Shown: positions 1,334-40,895 of the stretch, in pieces
Layout of the letters: every line of letters starts with the position of its first letter
Numbering within the stretch: position 1 is the first letter of the stretch
Source of the DNA: Escherichia coli
Lineage (GTDB): Bacteria; Pseudomonadota; Gammaproteobacteria; Enterobacterales; Enterobacteriaceae
Reading direction: 5' to 3' (one strand)
Assembly (NCBI RefSeq): GCF_001677475.2
Contig: NZ_CP015229.1
DNA length: 64,000 nucleotides
Notes under the pieces: generated by a model
Told to the model about the DNA's origin: nothing
What the model saw: the letters and a program-made list of their open reading frames with translations, nothing else
Databases searched by the model: none
Program-made: the position numbers and the translations under genes

Positions 1334-1343
1334 ACGTTCTCCT

Positions 1344-3841: not shown

Positions 3842-3902
3842 TTTTTCCTCATAAATTTGATGCCAGGTGAGGCTGTGTTTGTTTTGTTCGTTGCCGCTTT
3901 TT

Positions 3903-4089
3903 GCCTGATGCGACGCTGGCGCGTCTTATCAGGCCTACAAGACCCGAGCACAGAACCGTAGGCCGGATAAGGCGTTCACGCCGCATCCGGCATTCAGTGC
4001 CTGATGCGACGCTGACGCGTCTTATCAGGCCTACAGGTCCCGAGCACAGAACCGTAGGACGGATAAGGCGTTTTACGCCGCATCCGGCA
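3903..4089. repeat. REP/BIME cluster (two inverted REP units)
   Basis: Two copies of gcctgatgcgacgctg.cgcgtcttatcaggcctaca ... ccgtaggncggataaggcgtt.acgccgcatccggca between wcaK and wzxC. Confidence 0.8.
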
Positions 4090-4116
4090 ACCATTGCCGG
4101 AACCGAAAACAACAAC

Positions 4117-5595
4117 TCACCCCGCCCGTAAAAACATTTTCATTTTTTCGCTGCGACAAAACTGACGCTTCACTTCCACCACCAGCGGATGGCGCGACAG
4201 CACAATCATCACCACAAACGCCAGCACGCCCGCGGCTATTTGCACCGCCAGCAGCATCCCCAGCGCCAGTTGCCCTTTCAGTACAATGCCCAGTGCATAA
4301 CTGACCACCAGCGTCGGCAGCGAGAGATAAAACGGTAGCCACAAACTCAGGATGTACTGGCGATAACTGGAACCGAGCACCGGTTTAATCATCACGAAAT
4401 AGCTCAGAATGGTGTTGATAATCTGCACCAGCAGGAAACCGAGCGTGACGCCGATTGCGCCCGCCATCTGCCCACCAATGATGATTGCCGGAATAAACAG
4501 AAATGTTTTGAATACGTTGAATTTAAAGCTGATATCCACCCGCGCTTTCGCCATCAGCAGCGAACCAATCGGGTTACCCACTGAGCGCAGTAGCCCCACC
4601 ACACACAGCAATTGCAGCACCGGAATAATGCTGTTCCACTTTTCGCCAAATACCAGCGGTACAAAGTTATTCGACACCACCATTAGCCCCAGCAGCGCCG
4701 GAAAGTTGATAATCCCCACTACCGACAGCAGCTTGTAGAAGTTGACGCGCAGCTTTTCGGTGTCGTCCTGAATTTTGGCAAATGCCGGAAACAACACGCG
4801 GGTGATGATTGGGTTCAGCTTCATCGGCGGCACAACTGCCACGTTGTACGCCAGGTTGTATCCCCCTGCCACGCCCGCGCCGAGAATACGCGCCAGCACC
4901 AGCGTTGAAAGGTTGGTGTTGAGATAGTTGATGATGCTGTCCGCCGTCAGCCAGGCACCAAAGCGTAAGTTCGGTGCCACCGACGCCAGCGAGAAATGCA
5001 GACCGGGGCGATAAATTTTGCGGCCAAAGTAGCCAAACAGCAGCGTTCTTACCGCACTATTGACCAGATAACCGAGGATCGCGGTCATCGCCAGCGGCCA
5101 GAAATGGGCGCTAACCACCGTAAAAGTAAAGCCCGCCAGCACCGCGCTGGTTTCGATCATGCCGATTTTGTTGAACTCCAGCTCTTTTTGCATCAACGCG
5201 CGGAACTGCTGCCCGTGGGGGATCACCACAAACGCCAGTGACAATGTTTTAATCAACGGTGCCAGGTCCGGGTTATTCAGCACGTCGCCGATGAGATCAC
5301 TCAACAAAAACACTGCCACGCACACTACAATCCCCAGCCCGACGTTCAGCCAGTACAGCGTGGTGAGTTCCAGGTGGCTGATTTCTTTTCGCTGAATAAT
5401 CGAGTTAGCGATACCGAAGTCAGAAAGCGTATCTGCCAGCGCGATGATCACCAGCGACACGGTAAGCAAACCGAACTGGTGGTTGTCAATAATCCGCGCC
5501 AGCACGGTCATCTGTACCAGCCCGAGGCCGATGATGATCACCGTAGCAATCGCCGACCACTTCGCGCCGCTGATGGTTTTTTCACGTAAGCTCAT
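4117..5595 (-). CDS. wzxC: Colanic acid repeat-unit flippase WzxC
   Basis: 492-aa polytopic membrane ORF MSLREKTISGAKWSAIATVIIIGLG...; Wzx/MOP-type flippase; synteny. Confidence 0.9.
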   Translation of the reverse strand: MSLREKTISGAKWSAIATVIIIGLGLVQMTVLARIIDNHQFGLLTVSLVIIALADTLSDFGIANSIIQRKEISHLELTTLYWLNVGLGIVVCVAVFLLSDLIGDVLNNPDLAPLIKTLSLAFVVIPHGQQFRALMQKELEFNKIGMIETSAVLAGFTFTVVSAHFWPLAMTAILGYLVNSAVRTLLFGYFGRKIYRPGLHFSLASVAPNLRFGAWLTADSIINYLNTNLSTLVLARILGAGVAGGYNLAYNVAVVPPMKLNPIITRVLFPAFAKIQDDTEKLRVNFYKLLSVVGIINFPALLGLMVVSNNFVPLVFGEKWNSIIPVLQLLCVVGLLRSVGNPIGSLLMAKARVDISFKFNVFKTFLFIPAIIIGGQMAGAIGVTLGFLLVQIINTILSYFVMIKPVLGSSYRQYILSLWLPFYLSLPTLVVSYALGIVLKGQLALGMLLAVQIAAGVLAFVVMIVLSRHPLVVEVKRQFCRSEKMKMFLRAG

Positions 5596-5596
5596 A

Positions 5597-6991
5597 TCAA
5601 TATGCCGCTTTGTTAACGAAACCTTTGAATACCGTCAGGAAAACGATTTTGATATCGAACCAGACGCTCCATTCGCGGATGTACTCAAGGTCGAACTCGA
5701 CGCGTTTTTCCATTTTCTCCAGCGTGTCGGTTTCGCCGCGCCAGCCGTTAATCTGCGCCCAGCCAGTAATGCCCGGTTTCACTTTATGGCGCAGCATGTA
5801 GCCTTCAATGAGCTGTCGATACTGTTCGTTATGCGCCACTGCGTGCGGACGTGGCCCGACAATCGACATCCCACCAGTCAGCACATTGATAAACTGCGGC
5901 AATTCGTCCAGCGAGGTGCGGCGCAGAAAGTTCCCCACTTTGGTAACGCGCGGATCGTTCTGCGTCGCCTGGGTCACCACTTTGTCGTTCTCCATCACTT
6001 TCATGGAACGGAACTTCCACACTTTGATCGGTTTGCCATCCATGCCATAGCGAGTCTGGCGGAAAATAACCGGCCCTGGTGAACTGAGTTTCACCGCCAG
6101 CGCAATACAGCACAGCACCGGGGAGATCAGCAGCAGAATAAGCGTCGCCAGCACAATGTCTTCCGCACGTTTGAGCAGGCGGTTTACCCCGGAAAGCGGC
6201 GTATCGTACAGCGGTACCACCGGTACGCCGTTCATCTCTTCGATACGGGAATGGAGAATGTTGAAGGTAAAGACATCGGGGATCAGCAGCACCGAACAGG
6301 TGGTGTCCGCCAGTTGATGGACCAGTTTTTTCACGCGCGCGCCGTCGCACATTTGCATCGCGATATAGACGTTATGAATCTTGCCCGCTTTCGCATCCTC
6401 GACCAGTTGTTGCAGATTACCCGCCCAGTCGTTAGAAACGCCGCCCGGTTTTGGGTCGTGGTATACGCCCACCACTTCAAACCCTAACCACGGCTGATTA
6501 CGGAAGCTCTCCATCAGCATTTGTCCGGCGGCTAAATCCCCCGCTACGGCGACCATACGCTTGTTATAGCCATGATTACGCAGCCAGCCCGCCCCAATGC
6601 GAATACATGAACGGCAAACCACCAGTCCGATGCTGGTCAGCCCATACCACGCCAGCCAGATTTTCAGTTGCGTGTCGAAATCATTGTTGAACGCCACCAG
6701 ACCGGCGCTGAAAATCACGCTTAAGGTCCAGTTTTGTAGCAACAGGGCAAATTCTGTCGCTGCCCGAACACCGCGCCATGAGCGATAAAAATCGGTGATG
6801 CCGCCCAGCATCTGGAACACCACCAGCGTAATCAGCGCCACCAACAGGTGCATGTAGAGGAATGACAGTCCGCTCACTTCGCAAACCAGCCATAACCCGG
6901 CAAACATGATGGTGATATCTGAAAAGCGTTGCACCATAGAGATTAACGATGCATTGGTTTTCGCTCGCTCGCGCTTTTTTAGATTTGTCAT
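5597..6991 (-). CDS. wcaJ: Undecaprenyl-phosphate glucose-1-phosphate transferase WcaJ (initiating sugar transferase)
   Basis: 464-aa ORF with N-terminal TM helices and C-terminal bacterial sugar transferase domain (...PGITGWAQINGWRGETDT...). Confidence 0.9.
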   Translation of the reverse strand: MTNLKKRERAKTNASLISMVQRFSDITIMFAGLWLVCEVSGLSFLYMHLLVALITLVVFQMLGGITDFYRSWRGVRAATEFALLLQNWTLSVIFSAGLVAFNNDFDTQLKIWLAWYGLTSIGLVVCRSCIRIGAGWLRNHGYNKRMVAVAGDLAAGQMLMESFRNQPWLGFEVVGVYHDPKPGGVSNDWAGNLQQLVEDAKAGKIHNVYIAMQMCDGARVKKLVHQLADTTCSVLLIPDVFTFNILHSRIEEMNGVPVVPLYDTPLSGVNRLLKRAEDIVLATLILLLISPVLCCIALAVKLSSPGPVIFRQTRYGMDGKPIKVWKFRSMKVMENDKVVTQATQNDPRVTKVGNFLRRTSLDELPQFINVLTGGMSIVGPRPHAVAHNEQYRQLIEGYMLRHKVKPGITGWAQINGWRGETDTLEKMEKRVEFDLEYIREWSVWFDIKIVFLTVFKGFVNKAAY

Positions 6992-7011
6992 CGTTGTTCC
7001 TGTTCTATTGT

Positions 7012-7118
7012 CGCCTCGCCCCTCACCCCGGCCCTCTCCCCAAAGGGGCGAGGGGGAGAAGAAAGTTCCGTGCTCACTTCTCTCCGCAGGCAGTAGAGCG
7101 TCAGGGTGAGGGGGAAAG
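7012..7118. repeat. BoxC-like GC-rich palindromic intergenic element
   Basis: cgcccctcaccccggccctctcccc...ggggcgagggggag ... gggtgaggggg; nested inverted repeats between wcaJ start and cpsG stop; resembles the E. coli BoxC repeat (reverse complement gggagagggccggggtgagggg) as I recall it. Confidence 0.45.
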
Positions 7119-7126
7119 TAATGACA

Positions 7127-8497
7127 TTACTCGTTCAGCAACGTCAGCAGAGTTCGCGTTCGCGCTTCCATCAGCGGCACATCACCGCGCGATTCCACAT
7201 TCAGGCGCACCACCGGTTCGGTGTTGGAGGAGCGCAGGTTAAAGCGCCAGTCGGCAAAGGTCATGCTGATGCCATCGGTGCGATCCACCGCCAGCGCCTC
7301 ACGGCTAAAATGCTGTTCCACGCGGTTAATCGCCTCAACGGGATGCGCCAGTTTGCTGTTGATCTCACCGCTTGCCGGAAACGCCGCCATCCGGTCGCGT
7401 ACCAGTTCGCCCAGCGTTTTCTCTTTCAGGCACACCAGTTCGGCGACCAGCAGCCACGGGATCATGCCGCTGTCGCAGTAAGCGAAATCACGGAAGTAAT
7501 GGTGGGCGCTCATTTCGCCACCGTAGATGGCGTCTTCCTTGCGCATCCGTTCTTTAATAAAGGCGTGTCCGGTTTTCGACATCACCGGAGTGCCGCCCGC
7601 GGCAGTCACCACATCAACGGTGTTCCAGGAGAGACGTGGATCGTGGATGATCTTCGCGCCGGGATTTTTTTCGAGGAACGCTTCTGCCAGTAGGCCGACA
7701 ATGTAGTAGCCCTCAATAAACTGCCCTTTTTCGTCAAACAGGAAACAGCGGTCAAAATCGCCATCAAAGGCAATGCCCATATCCGCGCCGTGTTTGATGA
7801 CCGCATTGCGGGTGTCATCGCGGCATTCCGGCAGCAGCGGGTTAGGAATACCGTTGGGGAAATTGCCGTCCGGCGTGTTGTGCACTTTGATCAATTCCAC
7901 CGGTGCGCCGAGGGCGTTAAAGCGGGCTTCGATAGCGTCCACCACCGGCCCCGCTGCGCCGTTCCCGGAGTTGATTACCAGCTTGAGCGGCGTGAGGTTT
8001 TTGACGTTGATATAACCGAACAGGTGATCAACGTAAGCGTCACGCAGATTGATTTGCTGATAGCGACCGCGTTTTGTTTCATCAACGGGAGGAAAGTCGT
8101 TGGCTTCTGCCAGACGCTGGACGTCGCGCAGTCCGGTATCACCGCTGATCGGGCGGGCCCCTTCGCGCACCAGCTTCATGCCGTTGTAATCCATCGGGTT
8201 ATGGCTGGCGGTAACTTCGATGCCGCCATCCACGCCGAGATGGAACGTGGCGAAATAGATCTCTTCGGTGCCGGACATGCCAATATCCAGCACATCGACG
8301 CCCGCATCCTGTAAACCTTTCGCCAGCGCCAGTTTTAAGGTTTCGCTGGTGAGGCGGACATCACCGCCTAACACAATGGTTTTCGGTTTGAGAAATTCGC
8401 CATAGGCACGCCCAATACGCCAGGCAATATCTTCATTCAGTTCTTCGCCTAATTTCCCGCGAATATCGTAGGCTTTAAAGCAGGTTAATTTTTTCAT
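7127..8497 (-). CDS. cpsG: Phosphomannomutase CpsG (ManB)
   Basis: ORF 7127..8545; start trimmed to [19 protein letters not shown]... (456 aa); phosphohexomutase active-site motif TASHNP present. Confidence 0.9.
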
Positions 8498-8587
8498 GTC
8501 GTTACCCTTTTTCAGGCAATAGTTGGCCCTGACCGAAGCGGCCAATTTTGTTTTTGTCGTTATTTACATCGCGGTTCGGCATTCATT

Positions 8588-8689
<102 letters not shown>

Positions 8690-8699
<10 letters not shown>

Positions 8700-10126
8700 C
8701 CGTAGCGATCCGCGAAGCGCACCACATCATCCTCTTCGAGATAAGAGCCGGAGCGCACTTCAATTAAATCGAGCGGAATTTTCCCCGGGTTTTCCAGGCA
8801 GTGCTTCGCCCCCAGCGGAATATAAATGGACTCGTTTTCACCAAGCAGTTTGATATCACCGTCAATAGTGACTTTTGCCGTTCCCGCGACAACCACCCAG
8901 TGTTCCGCCCGGTGATGGTGCATCTGTACCGACAAGCCTTCGCCCGGTTTCACGGTGATGCGTTTCACCTGGTAGCGGTCGCCCGCGTCGATAGAGTCAT
9001 ATTTGCCCCACGGGCGATAGACTTCGCGATGTACCCGATGCTCATGGCGACCATCGGCTTTGATCTGCTCGACCACTTTTTTCACATCCTGCACCGCATT
9101 GCGGTCGGCAATCAGCACCGCATCTTTGGTCTGCACTACCACCAAATCTTTCACCCCGACGGTGGTGACCAGGCCAGATTCGGCATACACATAGCTGTTT
9201 TCAGTTTTGTGATTAATCACATCGCCATGGCAAACGTTGCCCTCGGCGGTGTGGGCGCTGATCTCCCATAAAGAGGACCAGGAGCCGACATCGCTCCAGC
9301 CCGCATCCATCGGCACCACAACAGCATCTGCCGTGCGTTCCATAACTGCGTAATCCACCGACTCTTCCGGGCAGGCCAGAAACGCTTCTTCATCCACACG
9401 AATAAAATCGAGATCCGGATCGACGGCGCTCATCGCTTTTTCACAGGCGTTGAGGATGTCCGGGCGATATTTTTTCAGTTCTTCGAGATAGCGTCCGGCG
9501 CGGAACAGGAACATGCCGCTGTTCCAGTAATATTCGCCGCTTGCCACATAGGCCTGGGCGGTTTCCAGATTCGGTTTTTCGACAAACTGCGCCACTTCAA
9601 AGGCCACCGTATCCTGCTCACCCGCCGACACTTCACCGCGACGAATATAGCCATAACCGGTTTCTGGTAGATCCGGCACAATGCCGAAGGTCACCAGCTT
9701 ACCTGCTTCGGCATATGGCATGGCATTACGCACGGCGGCACGGAACGCGTCTTCATCGGCAATCACATGATCCGCCGCCAATACCAGCATTAACGGGTCG
9801 CTCTCCGGGCTATGACGTTTTGCCGCCAGCGCCGCCAGTGCAATGGCAGGTGCAGTGTTACGCCCTGCCGGTTCGAGAATAATGTTCTCGGTGAGTTTGT
9901 TCAGTTGACGCAGCTGTTCCGCGACAATAAAGCGGTGCTGCTCATTACAAATCACCACCGGGCTTTCGCACTCCACGCCGTTCAGGCGACAGATGGTGGT
10001 TTGCAGCATGGTGAGATCGCCTTTCAGGCATAAAAACTGCTTGGGGTAAAGTACGCGGGAAAGCGGCCATAAGCGGCTCCCGGAGCCACCTGCCATCACA
10101 ACTGGATAGAGTTTCGACTGCGCCAT
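8690..10126 (-). CDS. cpsB: Mannose-1-phosphate guanylyltransferase CpsB (ManC)
   Basis: 478-aa [27 protein letters not shown]... with C-terminal cupin/mannose-6-P isomerase-like domain. Confidence 0.9.
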
Positions 10127-10128
10127 AA

Positions 10129-11352
10129 TTATCCCCGAATATCATTTATAAATTGACGTAACACGTTCTCTTTATCGAGCGTGCGTTCGGCATATTCACG
10201 TGCCACCGTGTTGTGTTTGGGCAGCAGGAGCGCCTGACGGATCCCCGCCACCAGTGCCTCGACCGATTCCGGTTCTACGCAAACCGCAATGCCCGGAAAG
10301 GTTTCGCAAAGCTGCCCCAGTTCGGTGTGGGCTTCTGCGGTAATCACCGCGTTACCACCTACCGCCAGAATATTGGTCAGTTTCGACGGCAATACGGCAT
10401 CTGCCGCGCCGCGTTTTTGCACTACCAGATGGCAATCGCCCATCTTCAGCAGTGCGGGTAAAGCGTCATACGATTGCAGTGGAAAAAATTGCATGTTGCG
10501 CAGTCCACGCTGCTGCGCCATTTTTTCCAGCCGCGCTTTGCCGCCGCCCTGCCCGACAATGGCAAAAATCAGCGGTTCATCGCGCAGGCGATCGGCAGCT
10601 TCAATAACGTTTTCCAGCCCTTGCTTTTCACCAATATTGCCGGAGTAAAGAATGATTTTTTTGTTATCCGGCAGGCCAAGCTGGTTACGAAGGGCATCAA
10701 CATCGGCGTCTGCAACATATTGAAAACGGGCGATTTCCGACCAATTGGGGAAGAAGATGACGTTTTCCGCCGCCACGCCTTTTTCGATGGCTTTATTCAT
10801 CATCGAACGCGAAATCGTGGAGACGTTATCGACGTTATGCAGTCCGCTACGTTCGAACGCCGTCGCCAGCTGTGCCACTTTGCCGCCTTTGCCTTTTCCG
10901 GCAAGGCCCAGCCCCAGCATGGCGTCCACTTCGTAATCCTGAATATGCAGCACCGTGCGCGCACCAGAAAGTTTCGCCAGCAGGCGCATTCCCGGCGTGC
11001 AAAACAGCGTTGGCACTACGCCAATAATGCGCTCCGGCTTCCAGCGACGTTGCGCCATCAGCGGGAAAAAACTGCTGACGGCAAAACTGCCGAGATGCAA
11101 CAGGCGTTTCAGGGTGCTCGGCTGTTTTGGCACATACAGCGGGCAGCGCCACACCGTGGCGGCCCCCTCTTCCCGTTTGTACCGCCAGGCGGAATAGTTC
11201 TCACCCACCTGCCACTGCGGGTAGTAAGGCGGTGCGGTAATGACCCGCACCTCATGACCTTGTGCCGCAAGCCATTCCACCATCTCTCCGGTGTATTTGC
11301 CGATGCCGGTTAACTCCGGCGAGTAGTTAATGCCGTAGACCAGTATTTTCAT
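10129..11352 (-). CDS. wcaI: Colanic acid biosynthesis glycosyltransferase WcaI
   Basis: 407-aa [27 protein letters not shown]...; GT4 family; synteny. Confidence 0.9.
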
Positions 11353-11828
11353 AATCCGGGTACTCCGGCACGCTTCTCAGCGAGAAAATAGGCGCGGCTG
11401 TTAGCGTGAACATTGTCACTGGCGAGCAGCGCGTCCGGCGTCAGCCAGCGGTAATCGTCATGCTGCTCATCCGGCAGTAACAGCTCTTCTTCCACTACTC
11501 TGAAGCGAAAACCGAGCACCACATAGTGAGTGGAGAAATCCGTGCCGGAGAAGTTATCGTCATAAAAGTGCTGCCAGACACCGTAAAACTGGCCTGCTGT
11601 TATCGGCAGACGCAGCCCCAGTTCCGCCATCGTCAGCCGCTCAAATGCGGCTTCCAGCGTTTCGTCTTTCTGCACGCGCCCTCCCGGCACAAACCAGTAA
11701 CCCTGCGCCGGGCGGTTGGTTCTTTTGCCAAGCAGAAACTCGCCGCGACTGTTCTCGACAATAAAGTCGAGAGAGACAAGCGGGGTGGAGCGCACTACCG
11801 TGGCAAAGTCTTCCTGACGTAAAAACAT
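11349..11828 (-). CDS. gmm: GDP-mannose mannosyl hydrolase (Nudix) Gmm/WcaH
   Basis: [26 protein letters not shown]...; Nudix fold; start taken at second Met (159 aa); overlaps wcaI by 4 bp. Confidence 0.85.
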
Positions 11829-11830
11829 CA

Positions 11831-12796
11831 TTACCCCCGAAAGCGGTCTTGATTCTCAAGGAACCACTGGTAAGTGCTGGCAAGCCCCGCTTCCAGTGAG
11901 ATTTCGTGATACCAGCCAAGCTGATGCAGGCGCGTCACATCCAGCAGTTTGCGCGGCGTACCATCCGGTTTACTGGCATCAAAAACCACCCGACCTTTGT
12001 AACCCACCACTTTGGCGATGGTTTGCGCCAGCTCGCGGATAGTGCAGTCAACGCCCGTGCCGACGTTAATGTGTGACAGCATCGGCTGGGTGTTTTCCAG
12101 CCAGACTTCGTGCGCCAGCTCCATCACATGAATGCTCGCCGCTGCCATATCATCGACGTGCAGAAATTCACGCATCGGTGTACCGCTGCCCCATACCACC
12201 ACGTCCGGTGCATTCTGTGCCGTCGTCTCGTGGAAGCGACGCAGCAATGCAGGTATCACATGCGAATTACTCGGATGGAAGTTGTCGTGTGGCCCGTACA
12301 GGTTGGTCGGCATGACCGAGCGGTAATCGCGTCCATACTGGCGGTTGTAAGATTCGCACAGTTTGATCCCGGCGATTTTGGCAATGGCGTAAGGCTCGTT
12401 GGTCGGCTCCAGCGTACCCTGCAATAACTCGCTTTCGGCCATCGGCTGTTTTGCCAGTTTCGGGTAGATGCAGGACGATCCGAGAAACAGCAGTTTGTTC
12501 ACGTCGTTCTGATGCGCAGCGTGAATGATGTTGCTCTCAATCATCATGTTCTGGTAGATGAAATCCGCCGGATAGGTGTTATTGGCAACAATGCCGCCCA
12601 CTTTCGCTGCCGCCAGATAAACCTGGTCAATGCGCTCGCTGGCAAAGAAATCATGCACCGCACGGCTATCCAGAAGGCTCAGCTCGTCGCGGGTGCGTAA
12701 TACCAGTTCCACATCACCGCGCTGTTCGAGCTGCCGCCTGATGGCGGAACCGACCATCCCGCGATGGCCAGCGATAAAAATGCGTTGTTTACTCAT
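11831..12796 (-). CDS. fcl: GDP-L-fucose synthase Fcl
   Basis: 321-aa [26 protein letters not shown]...; NAD(P)-binding GxxGxxG motif; synteny with gmd. Confidence 0.9.
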
Positions 12797-12798
12797 GC

Positions 12799-13920
12799 TT
12801 ATGACTCCAGCGCGATCGCCACGTCGTAGCCGTGAGATTTCAGCAGAGAGTGTTTTTTCGCCGCTTCGAGGTCATTAGCCACCATTTCAGACACCATCTC
12901 TCTGAGGGTGATTTCCGGTTTCCAGCCCAGTTTTTCGTGCGCTTTGGTCGGGTCGCCAAGCAGCGTTTCAACTTCAGCCGGACGGAAGTAACGCGGGTCA
13001 ACGGCGATAATCACATCACCCGGTTTAACGCCCGGCGCGTCATGCCCGGTGACGGAAACCACAATGCCCTTCTCTTCAACACCCGTGCCTTCAAAGCGCA
13101 GTTTGATGCCCAACTGTGCTGCCGCCATTTCCACGAACTGACGTACGGAGTACTGAACGCCGGTCGCGATAACGAAATCTTCTGGCTGTTCCTGTTGCAG
13201 CATCATCCACTGCATTTTTACGTAGTCTTTGGCATGGCCCCAGTCACGCAGGGAATCCATATTGCCGAGGTACAGGCACGACTCCAGCCCCTGGGCGATG
13301 TTGGCGATTGCGCGGGTAATTTTGCGGGTAACGAAGGTTTCGCCGCGGCGCGGGGATTCATGGTTGAAGAGAATACCGTTACAGGCGTACATGCCGTAGG
13401 ATTCGCGGTAGTTAACGGTGATCCAGTAGGCGTACAGTTTGGCGACCGCATACGGAGAGCGTGGGTAGAACGGCGTGGTTTCTTTCTGCGGAATTTCCTG
13501 CACCAGACCGTACAGTTCAGAAGTGGAAGCCTGATAGAAACGAGTTTTCTTTTCCAGACCGAGGAAGCGGATCGCCTCCAGCAGGCGCAGCGTACCCATC
13601 GCATCAACGTCTGCGGTATATTCCGGTGACTCAAAAGAGACCGCAACGTGGCTCATTGCGCCCAGGTTGTAAACTTCATCCGGCTGCACTTCACGCAAAA
13701 TGCGCGTCAGGTTGGAGGTATCACTCAGGTCGCCATAATGCAGATGGAATTTCGGGTTGCAGGTGTGCGGATCCTGATAAATGTGATCCACGCGCTCGGT
13801 GTTGAATGACGATGCACGACGCTTAATACCATGCACCTCATAACCTTTTTCCAGCAGAAACTCTGCCAGGTAAGAACCGTCTTGTCCGGTTACACCGGTG
13901 ATGAGAGCGACTTTTGACAT
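12799..13920 (-). CDS. gmd: GDP-mannose 4,6-dehydratase Gmd
   Basis: 373-aa [34 protein letters not shown]...; SDR-family dehydratase. Confidence 0.9.
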
Positions 13921-13946
13921 GTCTTATTCCTCTGTATTTTTTGAAT

Positions 13947-14495
13947 TTATTCAGTTTCAACGCGTTCGCGTATCACCACTGCGGGATTCCCCCGGCAAAC
14001 CACATTTGCCGGAAGCGATTTAAAAACACTGCTTCGCGCACCCACGACGGTGCCGTCGCCGATCGTTACGCCAGGGGCAACAAAGACATCGGTTGCCAGC
14101 CAGCATTTCTCGCCAATCACAATAGGTGTGGCGTTAATGGTGAAATGTTGACTTGCATGGTCGTGGCTACCGGTGCATAAATAACTTTTTTGCGATATCA
14201 CCGAATTTGCGCCAATGGTTATTTCACCGAGGGTATATAAATTGACCTCATCGCCGACCCACACGTAATCACCTAAGGTTAATTTCCACGGATAGGTAAT
14301 TTTTACTGACGGACGAATAACTACGTTTTTTCCTATTTTTGCGCCGAATAAACGTAATAAAAATTCCCGCCAGCGATACAATACTTGTGGCGACCAGGCA
14401 AATAATGTTGCCTGTACTGCCCACCACAATTGCACTTTAATAGCGTTGCCGCCCCGGAACCCTTTCGGCACCGAGAAACCACTTAAATCCTGCAT
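13947..14495 (-). CDS. wcaF: Colanic acid acetyltransferase WcaF (hexapeptide-repeat)
   Basis: 182-aa ORF with left-handed beta-helix hexapeptide repeats (...IGANSVISQKSYLCTGSHD...). Confidence 0.85.
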   Translation of the reverse strand: MQDLSGFSVPKGFRGGNAIKVQLWWAVQATLFAWSPQVLYRWREFLLRLFGAKIGKNVVIRPSVKITYPWKLTLGDYVWVGDEVNLYTLGEITIGANSVISQKSYLCTGSHDHASQHFTINATPIVIGEKCWLATDVFVAPGVTIGDGTVVGARSSVFKSLPANVVCRGNPAVVIRERVETE

Positions 14496-14510
14496 CGTTT
14501 TCCCTTATAT

Positions 14511-15257
14511 TCAGCTTTTGTTATATAAGGCTTTCGTCTTTGAGGTAGTACGTTGGCGTAAATGCCAGGATAATTCTGCCCAGAAGCCAGGCACATGTAA
14601 TATCTGCCGTTGGACTTTTTTGGCGTCAGCACACAATTCCATATTATTGGTGGTAGATACTCCACCCATAGAAAATTCAGACACCAGGCCATTGAGTTTT
14701 CTAAATGCATAACCAGCTTTATACATTTTGGCTGCCAGCGCGTAATCGGAAGAAACTTTATATTCCAGGTCATAACGCCATTTTTTCAAACCGGATACCG
14801 GGAAAAATATCGCCTGATGACTGGCGGGCAGGCTGTGATAAATATACCAGCCCGGTTTGGCGCTACGTTTAATTTTATGCCCGTCGCCAAAATCCAGCAG
14901 CGCATCGCCGGTGATCATCACGTTATCTTTTTGCATTTTTAACTTACGGACAAAAATTGCGGCATCCTGATGAAAAATATCGCCCGAGTTGAGAAACAAC
15001 GCGAACTTGCCTTGTGCCATCGCAATGCCCTTGTTCATGGCGTCGTAGATACCGTTATCTGGCTCGCTGACAAAGCGTAGGTTATAGATACCATTGAGGT
15101 TTTCCAGATACTCACGGGTGCCGTCGTTGGAACCGCCATCGACAACAATCCATTCGAAGCTGATATCGTCAGCCTGCGCCAGATGCGCCAGCGAGGCATG
15201 TGTTTTGACTATCCCTTCGAGGTTACGAAACGCGACAGTGATTATGCTAAGCAACAT
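14511..15257 (-). CDS. wcaE: Colanic acid glycosyltransferase WcaE (GT2 family)
   Basis: 248-aa [26 protein letters not shown]...; GT2 DxD-type fold; AT-richer than neighbours. Confidence 0.85.
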
Positions 15258-15267
15258 GTTCTTATTC

Positions 15268-16485
15268 TTACCTCGTAATATTTAACGCTTTTCGCAAAAT
15301 AAACGGACAGACGATTAAAAAAGCATATTCCGGGCTAAATATCGAACCGGTAAAAAACAGCGATACCGGAGTGAAAAGATATAATTGCACGCGAAAATTG
15401 CGATTATCACCAAAAGCGTTGATCATCATTTTTATCACTTTTCCCATGTACCACAGCGATAAAAACACTGCGAACCAGGAAAAATAAATAATCAGCAGAT
15501 ACAAACCATTGTCTATGGTTTTTCCGACATCCGCACCGTTAAATATTCCGAATGATGCGACATATTCATAAAGTGAGCCAAATCTGACTACACCGTCAAT
15601 ATGGGTCAAAGAATAACCGACCATCACCAGCGGACCGACAATACGATAATACGATGACGATCCTTCCGTACCTAAATCACCCAGACGGGTGGAAATATAA
15701 GGAAACGCGATTACCACACCAACCAGGAATACAGCCAGAGAAATCAATGCTAACGGTAACTTTTTCTTAATCGCCTCTTTATTCAGATATTGAAATACCC
15801 ACTCCAGCAAATAAAAAAGGATAAAGGTCATAACCCCTGAAAACGATCCGGATAATATTATCCCTGCGAGAATCATAGCATCTGTTTTAGGCGTTTTGAT
15901 ACCAAACTGTTTGATGCTGAGCCAAATTGAGATTAATGCCAGAGCGAAAAATGCCGGTTCGAAATAAAGTGCTGTCGTGCGCTTGCCACCGAATTTAATG
16001 AAATTCAGTACATAGCTGTTGCTGTAAATCAGATATTTCGAAATCGACTCCATAATACTGCTGCCGCCGGTGAGGATAATTTGCGCCATCTCCACCGCCG
16101 CCAGCGCCACCACCAACCCGACCACCAGATAAAAAAAGCGTAATATCTTGCGGTGGTTGTGGGGCGAAATCGTTTTAAAGCGAATACTCCACACCATGCC
16201 AATAATGATCACAATATAGACAAACAGCATGGTTGAAGTGACGTATTTACTGGCATCCAACGACTGACCAAACAGGTAGTTAAACGCCGTGAGTCCCGCA
16301 CCAATCCCTAAGGCAATCATCAATTTTTTAACGCTGATGCGCTCTAAAAACAGCAGTAACAAGACAGGTAAAAAAGTGACGATGGTGATGGGAAAACTTT
16401 CGCCAAGCTGGGCGATTTTGACGTTAACCAGCAGGTAGATCAGCGGCAGCAGCAGGTAGCTACAGATTCTGATAGAAGTTGACAT
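15268..16485 (-). CDS. wcaD: Colanic acid polymerase WcaD (Wzy-like)
   Basis: Polytopic membrane ORF; start trimmed to [21 protein letters not shown]... (405 aa); overlaps 3' end of wcaC by 26 bp; AT-rich. Confidence 0.8.
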
Positions 16486-17677
16486 ACTCCTCCAGCATCT
16501 GTTGTCCACTGTAGGCGGCACGGCTGCGTTGGCTGAACTCAGCCAGCGTGGTACCAAATACCGCCTGCGCGATTTCCGGTTTGCTTAACTGGACCAGTTG
16601 CAGCACCTCTTCTTCGCTGACGGTTTTACCGCCGGATTTTTGCAACACTTCACGCGCCGCGTCGCTATGGGTGGCAATCACCGGCACGCCAATTGATAAC
16701 GCCTCACACAAAATCAGTGGGTAGTTATCGACACGAGAACTGAACACCAGCGCATCCATCTGATTGAGCGCGCTCATCAGCTTACGTTTGTCGGTTTCAA
16801 AGCCGTGATTGACCACGTTGCCAGCGGTGAACGGCGAGAACTTACCAAAGGTATGCAGTTCGATTTTGTCGTCCAGCGCCATCATCTCGCGCACCAGTTG
16901 CTGGTTAGTTTTGCCGTCGTAACGCAGGTCATGCGCTACCACCGCGATTTTCGGCTTGCCCTGAGTTTCGCGCACCGGAGGCAGATCCGCCAGAATCGCT
17001 TCGGTTGCCATATCAATACCGTTATTGATAATCCGGCAACGCCCTGGGCCATACAGGCTATTGAAAGCGTCAGCCACATGCTGGCTGGGGGAAATAAACT
17101 GACAGCCCAGTGCCAGCATCTCACGGAATAACTGGCGTTTGCCCGCCACCAGCTGGCGCGCGCGATCAATCTTCACCGGCGGATAATTATTTAAGGTCGG
17201 GCATTTCTGGCAGCTCGTTTTCCAGCCTTCGCAACCGTCGGTAAAGGCGCAGCGTCCGGTAACGCTCCAGTGGTCGTGCAGCGTCCAGACCAGTGTGATA
17301 TCCGGTTTATGGTTTTTCACTTTTTCGCAAAAGCGCACCACGCTCTTAAGATTCAACCAATAGCTGTGCAGCACATGAAAATGCAGAACCAGCGGACCCG
17401 GTGTGCGAGTAATGGTGCGATATAACTCATTGAAATTACCGAACAGATCGCGATTAAACAGACGAAACAACGCAATGTTCGCCATCGCGGTCATCCGCGG
17501 CGTATGTTTGATGACCTGCGGGTAGTTCTGATGGCTGACGCTCTCTTTGCCGCCTTTGCCGTAGCCGTAGACAAAATGTGACGCCAGCCCCTGTTGCAGC
17601 GCGCGCTGGTGGAGATCTAACGCCACACCTGCCGCCCCGCCTTCCGCCAGTCGCACATTAAATTGCAGAATATTCAT
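16460..17677 (-). CDS. wcaC: Colanic acid glycosyltransferase WcaC (GT4 family)
   Basis: 405-aa ORF MNILQFNVRLAEGGAAGVALDLHQ... Confidence 0.9.
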   Translation of the reverse strand: MNILQFNVRLAEGGAAGVALDLHQRALQQGLASHFVYGYGKGGKESVSHQNYPQVIKHTPRMTAMANIALFRLFNRDLFGNFNELYRTITRTPGPLVLHFHVLHSYWLNLKSVVRFCEKVKNHKPDITLVWTLHDHWSVTGRCAFTDGCEGWKTSCQKCPTLNNYPPVKIDRARQLVAGKRQLFREMLALGCQFISPSQHVADAFNSLYGPGRCRIINNGIDMATEAILADLPPVRETQGKPKIAVVAHDLRYDGKTNQQLVREMMALDDKIELHTFGKFSPFTAGNVVNHGFETDKRKLMSALNQMDALVFSSRVDNYPLILCEALSIGVPVIATHSDAAREVLQKSGGKTVSEEEVLQLVQLSKPEIAQAVFGTTLAEFSQRSRAAYSGQQMLEEYVNFYQNL

Positions 17678-18162
17678 TTAATTACCTTCACTCGCGCTTT
17701 TTCTCCCACCACCAGCGCGTTGTCCGGGACAGAGTCGAGCACCACGCTGCCCGCGCCCACGGTGACGTTGTTACCAAGCGTGATATCACCAAGAATAATG
17801 ACGTTGGCACCGAGTTCGACACCGTTACCAATGTGTGGACATGCCATGTTATCGGCACCCCGATTGCCGATAGTGACGCCGTGGCGAATGGTGAAATCAT
17901 CCCCCGCGACCACGTTTTTATTGATCACTACGGCGTAACCGTGATGGATAGTAAAGCGTCGGCCAATGGTCGCGGCGGCCTGGATTTCATAACCGAAAAA
18001 GCATTCGGTGATAATGCGATACAGCACCAGCAGCGGGGCCGCCCACAGATTGTTGAGGACGTTCTTTTTGCGCCACACCGAACAAAAATGAGCAACGCGA
18101 TAGGCAAGAACCATGCAGCACGGGCGTAAACTCCAGCTGTTGGCGCGCAGATCTTCCAGCAT
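17674..18162 (-). CDS. wcaB: Colanic acid acetyltransferase WcaB (serine acetyltransferase-like)
   Basis: 162-aa ORF with hexapeptide repeats (...IGNRGADNMACPHIGNGVELGANVIILGDITLG...). Confidence 0.9.
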   Translation of the reverse strand: MLEDLRANSWSLRPCCMVLAYRVAHFCSVWRKKNVLNNLWAAPLLVLYRIITECFFGYEIQAAATIGRRFTIHHGYAVVINKNVVAGDDFTIRHGVTIGNRGADNMACPHIGNGVELGANVIILGDITLGNNVTVGAGSVVLDSVPDNALVVGEKARVKVIK

Positions 18163-18164
18163 CC

Positions 18165-19004
18165 TTAACGCCCCCGTATTCCATCAGCCAGACGTTTGCC
18201 GTTACGCACCGACAGTAGCGTCAACAAAGTCCGCCAGGTCATGCGTTTATTGCGGATCTGGTAGAGGGTAAACAATTGATATTTTTTGCTGGCGCGGTCA
18301 AATTTGTCTTTGTGCTTGCGGTAAAAGTGGAAGTATCCGGAGAATTTTTTCGGTGACGAGGTGATCTGCATTTCACCGTGATTGATATGCAGGATCTGCG
18401 TCGCTTCTTCCACTTTCCACGGTTCGCCATACTCCACCACCATCCGCAGGAAGATGTCGTAATCCTGTGCCGCTTTCAGTTCGGTATCGAACAAACACTC
18501 TTTGAAACGCCACGCCCAGGTAAAGACCTGATTGCCAATGATATTGCGTTTATAGAACAGGCGGCGTGAATAGGGTGATTTGGGATACAGCGGCAAACTT
18601 GCTGGTTGGGAATAGACTTCGCCCTGGCAAACGTAGTCGTTGGCGTACAAAAAGGCGTGAGTGACCAGTTGCTGCTTATGGGCGAGGAAGACGCTCAGGC
18701 GGTTGGGCGTCCATTCATCATCGTCATCGATCCCGGTGATGTATTCCCCTTGCGCCCGCATAATTGCCTGGTTACGTACCGCGCACGCTCCGCTGTTAAT
18801 ATCGTTGTGAATGTAAGTAATACGCGGATCGTTGAGGGCGGTGACGTACTGTTGCAGTTGTTCCCAGGAGGTGGAGCAATCATCCACGATGATCATCTCC
18901 CAGTTACTGTAGTCCTGGCGCAGGACCGATTTTATCGCCCGAATCGCCAGTTGTTGGCGGTTCCAGGTCGGCATATAGATTGAGATCAGCGGATTTTCTT
19001 TCAT
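18165..19004 (-). CDS. wcaA: Colanic acid glycosyltransferase WcaA (GT2 family)
   Basis: 279-aa ORF MKENPLISIYMPTWNRQQLAIRAIKSVLRQ... with DDD motif (GIDDDDEW). Confidence 0.9.
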   Translation of the reverse strand: MKENPLISIYMPTWNRQQLAIRAIKSVLRQDYSNWEMIIVDDCSTSWEQLQQYVTALNDPRITYIHNDINSGACAVRNQAIMRAQGEYITGIDDDDEWTPNRLSVFLAHKQQLVTHAFLYANDYVCQGEVYSQPASLPLYPKSPYSRRLFYKRNIIGNQVFTWAWRFKECLFDTELKAAQDYDIFLRMVVEYGEPWKVEEATQILHINHGEMQITSSPKKFSGYFHFYRKHKDKFDRASKKYQLFTLYQIRNKRMTWRTLLTLLSVRNGKRLADGIRGR

Positions 19005-37018: not shown

Positions 37019-37776
37019 GGTAACCACAGCGCCAGTGCCAACGTTTTATCATCATCGGTACGCTCGTTTACCGCCGGGCTGGACAAAAACTGCTTTAACA
37101 ATTCAGGTAATAAATCGAGTTGTTCCTGCGTTGCTGACACCAGCCCATTGAAAAACGGGGTAAAGAAAGGCACATGGGGAGAATTATCCAGCATATTTAA
37201 CGCCAGCCGCTGGATACCATCCGTAAATGCTGCAACTTTGTGCGCACGCTCAGTGCTGGTGAAAGTTTCCAGTCTGGAAACCGCATCTTCATCGGTAATG
37301 AAGTGCGTCATGTTGGCATATTCACCCACCATCGGCGTGAGCGGCAGTTGCAGACCGTGCCCCAAATCTACCACCACACCGCCGTCGCCAATCTGCATAA
37401 TCAGGGTGCCATTAGCTGATGAAATCAATCCCAGAAACGTGCAGGCAAAATCGCGAACAGCTAATTCTTTGGCTTCCGCCTCGGCAAAAAGTCGCTGACG
37501 AACGGTCAGCACAATATCCGTTGCGAGGACATCATTGAGCCCCAATTCCCCGCCCTGCACTTTTTGCATCATATAAGCCATCGCTTCATTGACGGCGAGC
37601 ATCGCGCCTTCGCCACCCTGCGAGACGCTACCTGCGCCATCGGCGACAAATACCGACAATAATGGCTGCTGGTCATTTAGCCAGGCAACCTGCATCTGGC
37701 AGGCATCCTGGCAAGGCAAGTCCGCGCTGATGTGCGACGTTCCAACGGTTGATGCATAGACCAGACGCCAGCTCAC
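37015..37776 (-). CDS. pphC: PP2C-family Ser/Thr phosphatase PphC (YegK)
   Basis: 253-aa [30 protein letters not shown]...[12 protein letters not shown]...; start overlaps the yegL stop by 4 bp. Confidence 0.85.
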
Positions 37777-38432
37777 ACTGACGTCCAGCCTTTTGGCGCT
37801 TCCAGCACAACTTCCGTTCCCGGCGTGGAGCGGGAAACCGAACGCAGCGAACTGGATAACCAGCTAAACAGTTCACGGAATTGTAATCCCTGCAGTGGCA
37901 AAGGCTGACGAACGCTGATTTGTGCCAGCGTCTTCATATCCGCCCCCTGAACGCCGATGGCAAAGAAGGCAAACTTCTTACCTTCTTCCCCCTGAAACAC
38001 TTTGTTGGCGGCTGCCTGCCACTCATCGGTTGGTGCACCATCAGTGATCATGAAAATCCACGGACGATAATAGGAAATACCATTGGCGCGATACTCACGT
38101 TTGCGCTCCTCAACCATATCCAGGGCTTTGGTAATGGCGGCCCCCATTGGTGTATCGCCCTGGGCAAACAGGATGGGCGGGAAAAAGTTAGCGGCGCTGG
38201 TAAAGGGTTGTTCCACATGCACTGGGCCGAACGTCACAATACCAAGTTCCACTCTTTTTAAGGCCAGCGGGTCGGCAAGCAGCTCATCGCGAAAGGTAAC
38301 CAATCCGGCGTTAAGTTCATTAATGGGTCTACCGTTCATCGAACCAGAAACATCCAGCAGCAAAATGCAGGGGCAACGTGGTTCCGGGTTACTGGCAAAA
38401 TCGCTGGTGGCAAACGTGATTTGTTCGCTCAT
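37773..38432 (-). CDS. yegL: von Willebrand factor A domain protein YegL
   Basis: 219-aa ORF with vWA MIDAS motif (LLLDVSGSM). Confidence 0.85.
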
Positions 38433-38613
38433 AAGAAATCCTTTCTTAGAGAATTATTGAGGTCCGGTATCATACCGATTGCAATAATGAAATAAGAGCA
38501 AACGAAGAAACTTTCAGAATTAGTCCCGGCGGCGCAGAAAATTTTGCTATTCGCCTCGCAAGAACGGAGAGCCGTCGATTGACACTAAGGGCGGAGTGAC
38601 ATAATTTCAGGAG

Positions 38614-38763
38614 TGAGGGTTAGGGAGAGGTTTCCCCCTCCCCCTGGTGTTCTTAGTAAGCCTGGAAGCTAATCACTAAGAGTATCACCAGTATGATGAC
38701 GTGCTTCATCATAACCCTTTCCTTATTAAAAGCCCTCTTCTCCGGGAGAGGCTTTCCCGTTTC
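38614..38763 (+). ncRNA. sibA: Sib antitoxin sRNA, copy 1 (SibA-like); ends approximate
   Basis: Promoter ttgaca (38579-84), 17-bp spacer, taattt; antisense to the whole ibs ORF; terminator hairpin agccctcttctccgggagaggct plus tttcccgttt. Confidence 0.6.
38653..38712 (-). CDS. ibsA: Ibs type I toxin peptide, 19 aa (MMKHVIILVILLVISFQAY)
   Basis: Minus-strand atgatgaagcacgtcatcatactggtgatactcttagtgattagcttccaggcttactaa; hydrophobic Ibs-family peptide fully overlapped by the antisense Sib. Confidence 0.8.
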   Translation of the reverse strand: MMKHVIILVILLVISFQAY

Positions 38764-38948
38764 AGCGTCCCGCTGAAATCGTCGGCTTACCTCCTTTCGC
38801 CCTGAATGCAGTCTATCGCTAACGCGTGAACAAAATAGTTTCCTCTGTGATTATTGCGTAACGACTCGCAAAGAATATTTGCTGGCAGGATCGCAGACTG
38901 CAAAGCCTGCAGATTGACAATCTTATCGTGAAGGCATACTTTCAGGAG

Positions 38949-39090
38949 TGAGGGTAGAGCGGGGGTTCCCCCGCCCTGGTAGTCTTAGTAAGCCGGGAAG
39001 CTTATGACTAAGAGCACCACGATGATGATCCACTTCATCATGACCCTTTCCTTATTTAAGGCCCCTTCCTCGGGAGGGGCTTTCCCGTTT
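38949..39090 (+). ncRNA. sibB: Sib antitoxin sRNA, copy 2; ends approximate
   Basis: Promoter ttgaca (38914-19), N17, tacttt (38937-42); terminator gccccttcctcgggaggggc plus tttcccgttt. Confidence 0.6.
38985..39041 (-). CDS. ibsB: Ibs type I toxin peptide, 18 aa (MMKWIIIVVLLVISFPAY)
   Basis: Minus-strand atgatgaagtggatcatcatcgtggtgctcttagtcataagcttcccggcttactaa. Confidence 0.8.
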   Translation of the reverse strand: MMKWIIIVVLLVISFPAY

Positions 39091-39276
39091 CAGCGTCCCG
39101 CTGAAATCATCGGCTTACCTCCTTTCGCCCTGAATGCAGTCTATCGCTGACTTGCGGATAAAATAGTTTCACATGTGATTATTGCGTAGCGTCTCGCAAA
39201 GAATATTTGCTGGCAGGATCGCAGACTGCAAAGCCTGCAGATTGACAATCTTATCGTGAAGGCATACTTTCAGGAG

Positions 39277-39418
39277 TGAGGGTAGAGCGGGGTTTCCCCC
39301 GCCCTGGTAGTCTTAGTAAGCTGGCCAGCTAATGACTAAGAGCACCACGATGATGAGTATCTTCATCATGACCCTTTCCTTATTTAAGACCCCTTCCTCG
39401 GGAGGGGCTTTCCCGTTT
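39277..39418 (+). ncRNA. Sib antitoxin sRNA, copy 3; ends approximate
   Basis: Promoter ttgaca (39242-47), N17, tacttt (39265-70); terminator hairpin 39388-39408 plus T-run. Confidence 0.6.
39313..39369 (-). CDS. Ibs type I toxin peptide, 18 aa (MMKILIIVVLLVISWPAY)
   Basis: Minus-strand atgatgaagatactcatcatcgtggtgctcttagtcattagctggccagcttactaa. Confidence 0.75.
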   Translation of the reverse strand: MMKILIIVVLLVISWPAY

Positions 39419-39576
39419 CAGCGTCCCGCTGAAATCGTCGGCTTACCTCCTTTCGCCATGCAAGCAGTCTATCGCTAACGCGTAGATAAAATAGTTTCAT
39501 GTGTTATTACTGGATGCGTGCTCGCAAATGTGCCCGTCATTCAGACGATTCCCGACAGTGTTTCATAATTCCTCCA

Positions 39577-39594
39577 TTTTTCTCCCTTATTGGC
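39577..39594 (+). promoter_or_regulatory. BaeR box upstream of mdtA
   Basis: ttttTCTCCCTTATTGGC versus published BaeR consensus TTTTTCTCCATDATTGGC (one mismatch), about 55 bp upstream of the mdtA ATG. Confidence 0.65.
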
Positions 39595-39647
39595 TGGCTA
39601 CACTAGTATCATTCCGCGAAACGTTTCAGGAAGAGAAACTCTTAACG

Positions 39648-40895
39648 ATGAAAGGCAGTTATAAATCCCGTTGGGTAATCGTAATCGTGGTGGTTATCGC
39701 CGCCATCGCCGCATTCTGGTTCTGGCAAGGCCGCAATGACTCCCGGAGTGCAGCCCCAGGGGCGACGAAACAAGCGCAGCAATCGCCAGCGGGTGGTCGC
39801 CGTGGTATGCGTTCCGGCCCATTAGCCCCGGTTCAGGCGGCGACCGCCGTAGAACAGGCAGTTCCGCGTTACCTCACCGGGCTTGGCACCATTACCGCCG
39901 CTAATACTGTTACGGTGCGCAGCCGCGTGGACGGTCAACTGATGGCGTTGCATTTCCAGGAAGGCCAGCAGGTCAAAGCAGGCGATTTATTGGCAGAAAT
40001 TGACCCCAGCCAGTTCAAAGTTGCATTAGCACAAGCCCAGGGCCAACTGGCAAAAGATAAAGCCACGCTTGCCAACGCCCGCCGTGACCTGGCGCGTTAT
40101 CAACAACTGGTAAAAACCAATCTCGTCTCCCGCCAGGAGCTGGATGCCCAACAAGCGCTGGTCAGTGAAACCGAAGGCACCATTAAGGCTGATGAAGCAA
40201 GCGTCGCCAGCGCACAGCTGCAACTCGACTGGAGCCGTATTACCGCACCAGTCGATGGTCGCGTTGGTCTCAAGCAGGTTGATGTTGGTAACCAAATCTC
40301 CAGTGGTGATACCACCGGGATTGTGGTGATCACCCAGACGCATCCTATCGATTTGCTCTTTACCCTGCCGGAAAGCGATATCGCTACCGTCGTGCAGGCG
40401 CAAAAAGCCGGGAAACCGCTGGTGGTAGAAGCCTGGGATCGCACCAATTCAAAGAAATTAAGCGAAGGCACGCTGTTAAGTCTCGATAACCAAATCGATG
40501 CCACAACCGGTACGATTAAAGTGAAAGCACGCTTTAATAATCAGGATGATGCGCTGTTTCCCAATCAGTTTGTTAACGCGCGCATGTTAGTCGACACCGA
40601 ACAAAACGCCGTAGTGATCCCAACAGCCGCCCTGCAAATGGGCAATGAAGGCCATTTTGTCTGGGTGCTGAATAGCGAAAACAAGGTCAGCAAACATCTG
40701 GTGACGCCGGGCATTCAGGACAGTCAGAAAGTGGTGATCCGTGCAGGTATTTCTGCGGGCGATCGCGTGGTGACAGACGGCATTGATCGCCTGACCGAAG
40801 GGGCGAAAGTGGAAGTGGTGGAAGCCCAGAGCGCCACTACTCCGGAAGAGAAAGCCACCAGCCGCGAATACGCGAAAAAAGGAGCACGCTCCTGA
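39648..40895 (+). CDS. mdtA: RND efflux membrane-fusion (periplasmic adaptor) protein MdtA
   Basis: ORF 39501..40895 trimmed to [28 protein letters not shown]... (415 aa). Confidence 0.9.

Follow-up and report, generated by a model that had tools for sequence, protein, structure and literature searches.

The intergenic region between yegL and mdtA of Escherichia coli K-12 harbors the sibA/ibsA-sibB/ibsB type I toxin-antitoxin repeats, which are said to have been described by Fozo et al. in 2008. For the K-12 copies it is known that the Ibs peptides are toxic and that the cognate Sib RNAs repress this toxicity (PMC4147584, PMC2943612), and multiplicity of ibs genes in tandem was earlier reported for the O157:H7 strain Sakai, which carries seven of them (PMC2887945). 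The mdtA gene (also named yegM) that follows the repeats is preceded by a published BaeR box, which spans positions -34 to -17 relative to the mapped mdtA start site, and the consensus for such boxes, which was given by Nishino et al. (2005) and is cited in PMC3799227, is TTTTTCTCCATDATTGGC.

Here we analyzed a stretch of 64 kb of E. coli DNA (hereafter the window) that carries this locus with three Sib/Ibs units (Table 1). When compared with the K-12 mdtA promoter, that of the window showed no differences, because it has the same 18-bp box, the same 53-bp distance from the box to the ATG codon and the same sequence from position -91 to the ATG codon, and the same -10 element and start-site position would thus be expected. 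The array upstream comprises three units in the window versus two in K-12. With respect to the K-12 sib repeats, the locus, the orientation and the first and last units are alike, and the window adds one internal unit made of a B-type Sib and an A-type spacer, as is also the case in strain EDL933. Both the identity of the box and this ordinary arrangement are already known, and positions 39577-39594 very probably represent the described BaeR-dependent promoter site of the mdtABCD-baeSR operon in a strain that has three Sib/Ibs units.

Table 1. Features of the yegL-mdtA region, in coordinates of the window
Feature	Position	Strand	Remarks
yegL CDS	37773..38432	-	borders the intergenic region on the left; from the RefSeq annotations of K-12 and strain 19KM1831
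Sib/Ibs tandem array	38600..39528		Tandem Repeats Finder: period 328 bp, 2.8 copies, 88% matches, score 1402
Sib copy 1 (SibA type)	38615..38758	+	100% to K-12 sibA; 149.5 bits; ends from K-12 annotation
ibsA ORF	38653-38712	-	antisense to Sib copy 1; MMKHVIILVILLVISFQAY
Sib copy 2	38950..39085	+	extra internal unit: B-type Sib, then A-type spacer; 137.8 bits
ibs ORF of copy 2	38985-39041	-	antisense; MMKWIIIVVLLVISFPAY
Sib copy 3	39278..39413	+	K-12 SibB counterpart, mdtA-proximal; 139.3 bits; ends from K-12 sibB annotation
ibs ORF of copy 3	39313-39369	-	antisense; MMKILIIVVLLVISWPAY
Sib3 terminator hairpin	39386..39410	+	followed by UUUCCCGUUUC; RNA fold -15.4 kcal/mol
Candidate ibs3 -10 TAGACT	39466..39471	-	putative; reads away from mdtA
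Conserved block	39538..39568	+	TTCAGACGATTCC.GACAGTGTTTCATA; upstream of the operator
BaeR operator	39569..39594	+	published 18-bp box 39577-39594; leftward extension putative
mdtA -10 TACACT	39599..39604	+	6 nt upstream of the mapped start
mdtA transcription start	39611 (A)	+	37 nt before the ATG; secondary start 39619 (29 nt)
mdtA CDS	39648..40895	+	first gene of mdtABCD-baeSR; 415 aa; annotation of matching E. coli records

The Sib/Ibs array upstream of mdtA

The yegL start codon (38430-38432, read as cat on the + strand) lies to the left of the array. The Rfam model SIB_RNA (RF00113) matched the window at 38579-38727, 38914-39056 and 39242-39384, always on the + strand and over the full model (positions 1-147), with the scores listed in Table 1 against a gathering score of 56; the first of these spans includes the promoter of Sib copy 1. 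Each Sib wholly contains a short ORF of 18-19 aa that encodes a hydrophobic peptide and whose equivalent is annotated as an Ibs-family toxin in strain 19KM1831, the closest match found. The toxic activity of Ibs and its repression by Sib come from the literature on the K-12 copies and are putative for the variants in units 2 and 3 of the window.

The ibs ORFs are all located on the - strand, and therefore the transcription of the ibs genes proceeds toward yegL and away from mdtA. The candidate -10 box of the mdtA-proximal ibs gene is based on the motif GCAGTCTATCGCT, which was invariant in the five aligned units (five of five), and its position fits the size of about 160 nt reported for the ibsC and ibsD mRNAs (PMC2943612). 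Only the Sib RNAs are co-directional with mdtA, and each of them ends in a hairpin terminator, whose predicted stability ranged from -14 to -20 kcal/mol over the Sib terminators and was -19.8 kcal/mol in unit 2; a second hairpin (39416-39434) follows the terminator of the third Sib. A simple terminator scan missed the Sib terminators, in which the U-tract is interrupted. The stem of the terminator of copy 3 (39385-39410) was observed to carry a G-to-A change (UAAGACCCC versus UAAGGCCCC in unit 2), with a fall in predicted stability from -19.8 to -15.4 kcal/mol.

To locate the additional unit, the segments of the three units were compared with those of K-12. Unit 1 was 98-100% identical to the K-12 unit A, and unit 3 was 93-99% identical to the K-12 unit B in all four segments. 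The Sib body of unit 2 was 95% identical to that of the K-12 unit B, and its right-hand spacer was 85% identical to that of unit A versus 73% to that of unit B. From these segment identities it follows that the extra 328 bp are internal to the array and more than 400 bp away from the mdtA ATG codon, an arrangement such as unequal crossing-over inside the array would produce. The presence of three ibs/Sib units between yegL and mdtA was also confirmed in EDL933.

As to the source of the DNA, a comparison with 5,426 complete E. coli RefSeq genomes gave 97.7% as the highest identity for the 24-kb segment from dgcE to mdtC (26000-50000). The identity to the cryptic Escherichia clades was 93-94% over mdtA and the region downstream. 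The DNA thus appears to come from E. coli sensu stricto, but from a lineage or mosaic without a close representative among these genomes.

The BaeR operator and the mdtA promoter

The sequence at 39577-39594, TTTTTCTCCCTTATTGGC, matches the BaeR consensus at 17 of 18 positions and is identical to the K-12 site (NC_000913.3, 2153945-2153962). When up to three mismatches were allowed, this box was the sole match to the consensus on both strands of the 64 kb, the chance expectation being 0.19. The core TTTTTCTCC-N3-ATTGGC is common to the mdtA upstream region and to those of the K-12 spy and acrD genes, from which the mdtA box differs in having a C rather than an A at box position 10. The preliminary description had proposed a BaeR box at this place, had assigned it to the mdtABCD-baeSR operon and had set it about 55 bp before mdtA, and all three proposals are borne out, since the site is unique in the window and identical to a K-12 sequence that lies before mdtA under a BaeR ChIP-exo peak, and the measured gap between the box and the ATG codon at 39648 is 53 bp. 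That description had also located the box about 40 bp downstream of, and immediately after, the third Sib/Ibs unit. The distance is 48 bp from the end of the repeat to the box, or 40 bp if the operator is counted from 39569, and the claim of immediate adjacency stands for the repeat unit but not for the Sib3 RNA, which ends at about 39413, 163 bp before the box.

The occupancy of this site by BaeR was taken from published data on K-12. The BaeR ChIP-exo analysis of strain MG1655 revealed two peaks upstream of mdtA, peak_5 (2153931-2153967) with a signal-to-noise value of 10.96, and peak_6 (2153972-2153998) (PMC7657598, Data Set S2). The K-12 and window sequences align here without indels, and peak_5 corresponds to 39563-39599, which covers the box, and peak_6 to 39604-39630, i.e. 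from -7 to +20 relative to the mdtA start, a span that would be expected from a polymerase held at the promoter. In agreement with a role of BaeR, a baeR deletion in K-12 decreased mdtA expression 16-fold under ethanol stress (log2 -4.0) and had no effect without stress (change of 0.07) (PMC7657598). On the basis of sequence identity, both the occupancy and the dependence on BaeR can be expected to apply to the window strain.

A co-regulation of mdtA by CpxR has been reported in the literature, but no CpxR direct-target peak is listed at mdtA in PMC7657598. When the CpxR consensus GTAAA-N5-GTAAA was searched with up to two mismatches, no match was obtained between the last Sib and mdtA, and the only intergenic match was a weak one at 38858-38872, within the spacer of unit 1. 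Over the whole window, 71 such loose matches were counted versus 45 ± 6.5 in shuffled sequences, none of them near mdtA, and this excess is probably an effect of composition or codon usage.

The distance between the mdtA start site and the ATG codon is 37 nt in MG1655 (RegulonDB v10.5) and 37 and 29 nt in the O157:H7 strain EDL933, with a deviation of 0, according to a Cappable-seq study of the latter (PMC10469882, Table S5, sheet 3). Because the window is identical to MG1655 and EDL933 from -91 to the ATG codon, the start could be mapped to 39611 and the -10 element to TACACT. The promoter sequence CTA(A/C)ACTAGTATCATT (39597-39613) was nearly invariant in about 80 genomes, and a -35-like hexamer is missing from the mdtA promoter. 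Two other promoter candidates were discarded. The hexamer TAGTAT (39604-39609), a -10 candidate with a predicted start near 39616, gave way to TACACT and position 39611 in view of the mapped start site, and it may act as the -10 element of the minor start at 39619. A sigma-70-like match (TTCAGA-18-CATAAT, 39540-39569) that is conserved across genera was rejected as a second active promoter, because no start about 72 nt before the mdtA ATG codon is listed for EDL933, in which 250 bp of upstream sequence were screened under eight conditions (PMC10469882).

To delimit the operator, the mdtA loci of 80 species-level Enterobacteriaceae genomes were compared by using the 415-aa MdtA translation as query. 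The most conserved upstream elements were TTCATA(A/T)TTCCTCCATTTTT (39563-39583) and the CTA(A/C)ACTAGTATCATT sequence that contains the -10 element. Outside Escherichia and Citrobacter, positions 39584-39594, which form the 3' half of the box as published, were variable and poorly conserved, and therefore the exact limits of the operator are uncertain. Two direct repeats, CTCCAT (39572-39577) and CTCCCT (39582-39587), are found 10 bp apart, with TACACT 8 bp beyond the end of the second repeat unit. The upstream CTCCAT is identical to the CTCCAT core of spy and nearly invariant across genera; in contrast to the spy and acrD boxes, mdtA has a second repeat 10 bp upstream, which is the better conserved of the two across genera. 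The spacing between the box and the likely -10 element would also differ from that of acrD by about one helical turn. Because of the two direct repeats, the match of the upstream CTCCAT to the spy core and the conservation across genera, we place the putative two-repeat operator at about 39569-39594 (-42 to -17), which suggests a functional core that is shifted leftward by about 8 bp relative to the published box.

In class II promoters of the PhoB type, tandem direct repeats spaced about 10-11 bp apart overlap or replace the -35 element, and the -10 element follows about 10 bp downstream. The mdtA promoter would work in a similar way, since its tandem direct repeats are one helical turn apart at about -42 to -21, no -35 element is recognizable and the -10 element comes 8 bp after the second repeat. 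The regulator and the recognition sequence differ from those of the pho box, and the likeness of BaeR to PhoB is drawn from sequence, start site and general knowledge. According to this model, phosphorylated BaeR, a member of the OmpR/PhoB family, would bind at 39569-39594 (about -42 to -17), presumably as a tandem dimer on the CTCCAT and CTCCCT repeats 10 bp apart, where it would stand in for the -35 element upstream of TACACT in the manner of PhoB at the pho box and would then activate the sigma-70-dependent transcription of mdtA with a 37-nt leader. The sequence, the position of the start site and the analogy within the family are the basis of this proposed tandem-dimer, PhoB-like mechanism.

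Conservation of the Sib-mdtA pair across genera

The association of Sib with mdtA was followed across genera with nhmmer and with Rfam. All Escherichia species sampled, as well as Citrobacter, Pseudocitrobacter and Yokenella, have a Sib on the same strand as mdtA, with its 3' end 231-236 bp before the gene, and in Kluyvera the distance from Sib to mdtA was 207-335 bp. Enterobacter, Klebsiella, Raoultella, Lelliottia, Atlantibacter and Cedecea have no Sib upstream of mdtA. In the Sib-bearing genera, the end of the module is marked by the conserved sequence CTCGCAAA (39521-39528). The Sib-mdtA adjacency is old, with one unit being the likely ancestral state that E. coli expanded to two to four.

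Such an old pairing at a fixed distance raises the question of whether it reflects shared control rather than an accident of descent. The proximal Sib/Ibs unit and the mdtA promoter might form a coupled divergent control region in which BaeR, or a factor that acts at the 39538-39568 block, also regulates ibs, so that envelope stress would tune the proximal ibs promoter; if true, a membrane-active ibs toxin would be tied to the envelope-stress response. The nearly fixed distance of Sib in Escherichia, Citrobacter, Pseudocitrobacter and Yokenella, more variable in Kluyvera, would fit this idea, and so would the location of the module end about 10 bp from the conserved mdtA block and the putative transcription-factor sites, unpublished, that were mentioned upstream of ibs promoters (Han et al., PMC2943612). 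However, the 39538-39568 block, which was conserved in 28 genomes with Sib upstream of mdtA, was conserved, together with the operator, equally well in 46 genomes without upstream Sib/Ibs, including those of the six genera that lack such a Sib, which indicates that both the block and the operator belong to mdtA. In these 46 genomes there is an abrupt onset of similarity to the window near position 39538, and therefore the whole of the conserved control region is located beyond the end of the array (39528). The fixed distance can, moreover, be explained by common descent of a compact intergenic region, the ibs genes are absent from both the BaeR iModulon genes and the BaeR direct targets as listed in PMC7657598, and a prophage that parts the ibs ORF from its promoter is tolerated in some strains. 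We consequently regard shared control of the two as improbable, and favor a BaeR-dependent promoter that serves mdtABCD-baeSR.

The prophage was observed in strain SMN152SH1 (NZ_CP024618.1; positions 1-18560 of the extracted locus), where a degraded lambdoid element of about 18 kb is inserted between the body of the proximal Sib and its terminator, at the core CCTTATT(A/T)AAGG (about 39377-39388 in the window). Its genes include espJ, nleH, cif and an nleG-like one, which code for type III secretion system effectors, and xis and int are located at the mdtA end. Although the insertion parts the ibs ORF from its promoter, the native sequence upstream of mdtA is retained over about 270 bp, with the promoter unchanged. 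Because strain 2013C-4974 gave the same truncated match as SMN152SH1, the 3' end of the proximal Sib appears to act in some EHEC-like strains as an attachment site for prophages.

Copy number of the units and control of mdtA

The number of units varies among E. coli strains. Among 60 records taken at even spacing from 5422, 24 had three units, 24 had two, about seven appeared to have four or more and one had a single unit, the remaining few being insertions or partial matches; the three-unit arrangement was thus found in about 40% of the sampled complete E. coli genomes. In 5357 of 5417 E. coli records, the 261 bp from 39440 to 39700 showed an identity of 95% or higher. To compare the copy-number classes in detail, we used strains with one (CH4799), two (MG1655), three (19KM1831 and EDL933) and four units (derivatives of strain B). 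All of them have the same box and the same 53-bp gap between the box and the ATG codon, with 380-387 bp from the last Sib to the ATG codon, and the sequence from -91 to the ATG codon was identical in strains with one, two, three and four units and in one strain with a prophage insertion. The natural one-unit allele of CH4799 has an ibsA-type Sib joined to the mdtA-proximal right flank, with 387 bp from Sib to the ATG codon, and in the four-unit allele of the BL21 lineage the spacing of the units is 336, 328 and 328 bp.

The preliminary description had suggested that tandem amplification of the units could change the spacing of elements upstream of mdtA or cause readthrough from the ibs promoters into this gene. 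In its general form, this idea holds that gain or loss of Sib/Ibs units shifts promoter elements or lets transcription of the repeats enter mdtA, and it predicts that induction differs between two-unit and three-unit strains. It is true that no more than 40-48 bp separate the array from the operator, that the number of units ranges from one to four among E. coli genomes, and that the Sib RNAs run in the direction of mdtA with terminators of interrupted U-tract, that of unit 3 being weaker than that of unit 2 (-15.4 versus -19.8 kcal/mol). Nevertheless, the spacing argument fails, because the extra unit was gained within the array, 400 bp or more away from the ATG codon, and the proximal unit, its junction with mdtA and the sequence from -91 to the ATG codon are the same in all classes from one to four units. 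Readthrough from the ibs promoters is contradicted by their location on the - strand, from which they fire away from mdtA. As for the Sib RNAs, one Sib lies directly upstream of mdtA in every strain, and transcripts of the more distal copies face additional terminators. Furthermore, transcription starts 37 nt before the ATG codon in both the two-unit strain MG1655 and the three-unit strain EDL933, and the BaeR footprint and the conservation across genera, which begins at about 39538, downstream of the array, fall inside the region shared by all copy-number classes when the K-12 and EDL933 data are transferred to the window, which is essentially the outcome that the preliminary description had named as contrary to its suggestion. 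This explanation is accordingly very unlikely, still more so than shared control.

The copy number most likely changes by unequal recombination between internal units, which leaves the proximal unit, the junction and the whole mdtA control region constant in every copy-number class. Because this control region is constant, the Sib/Ibs copy number is not expected, as judged from the DNA, to affect the control of mdtA by BaeR. Long-range effects of the number of repeats may exist, through supercoiling from the divergent ibs and the co-directional Sib transcription or through nucleoid proteins.

Finally, that the box is a functionless chance resemblance to the BaeR consensus has next to no probability, because although short AT-rich motifs can arise by chance and 18 of 100 shuffles of the window contained at least one match with up to three mismatches, the box has a single mismatch, stands where such a site would be expected, ahead of the leading gene of the BaeR-regulated operon, shares its motif with spy and acrD and is conserved in all Escherichia species sampled, and the K-12 ChIP-exo and expression data refute chance insofar as they are transferable by sequence identity.

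For specialists, the by-products of this analysis are the putative operator core, which is conserved across genera and displaced leftward by 8 bp from the published box, the conserved block of 25-30 bp upstream and the apparent prophage site at the 3' end of the proximal Sib. Taken together, these results indicate that the copy number of one to four varies inside the array, and it need not count as a confounder when mdtABC and BaeSR are compared between K-12, B strains and pathogenic lineages.
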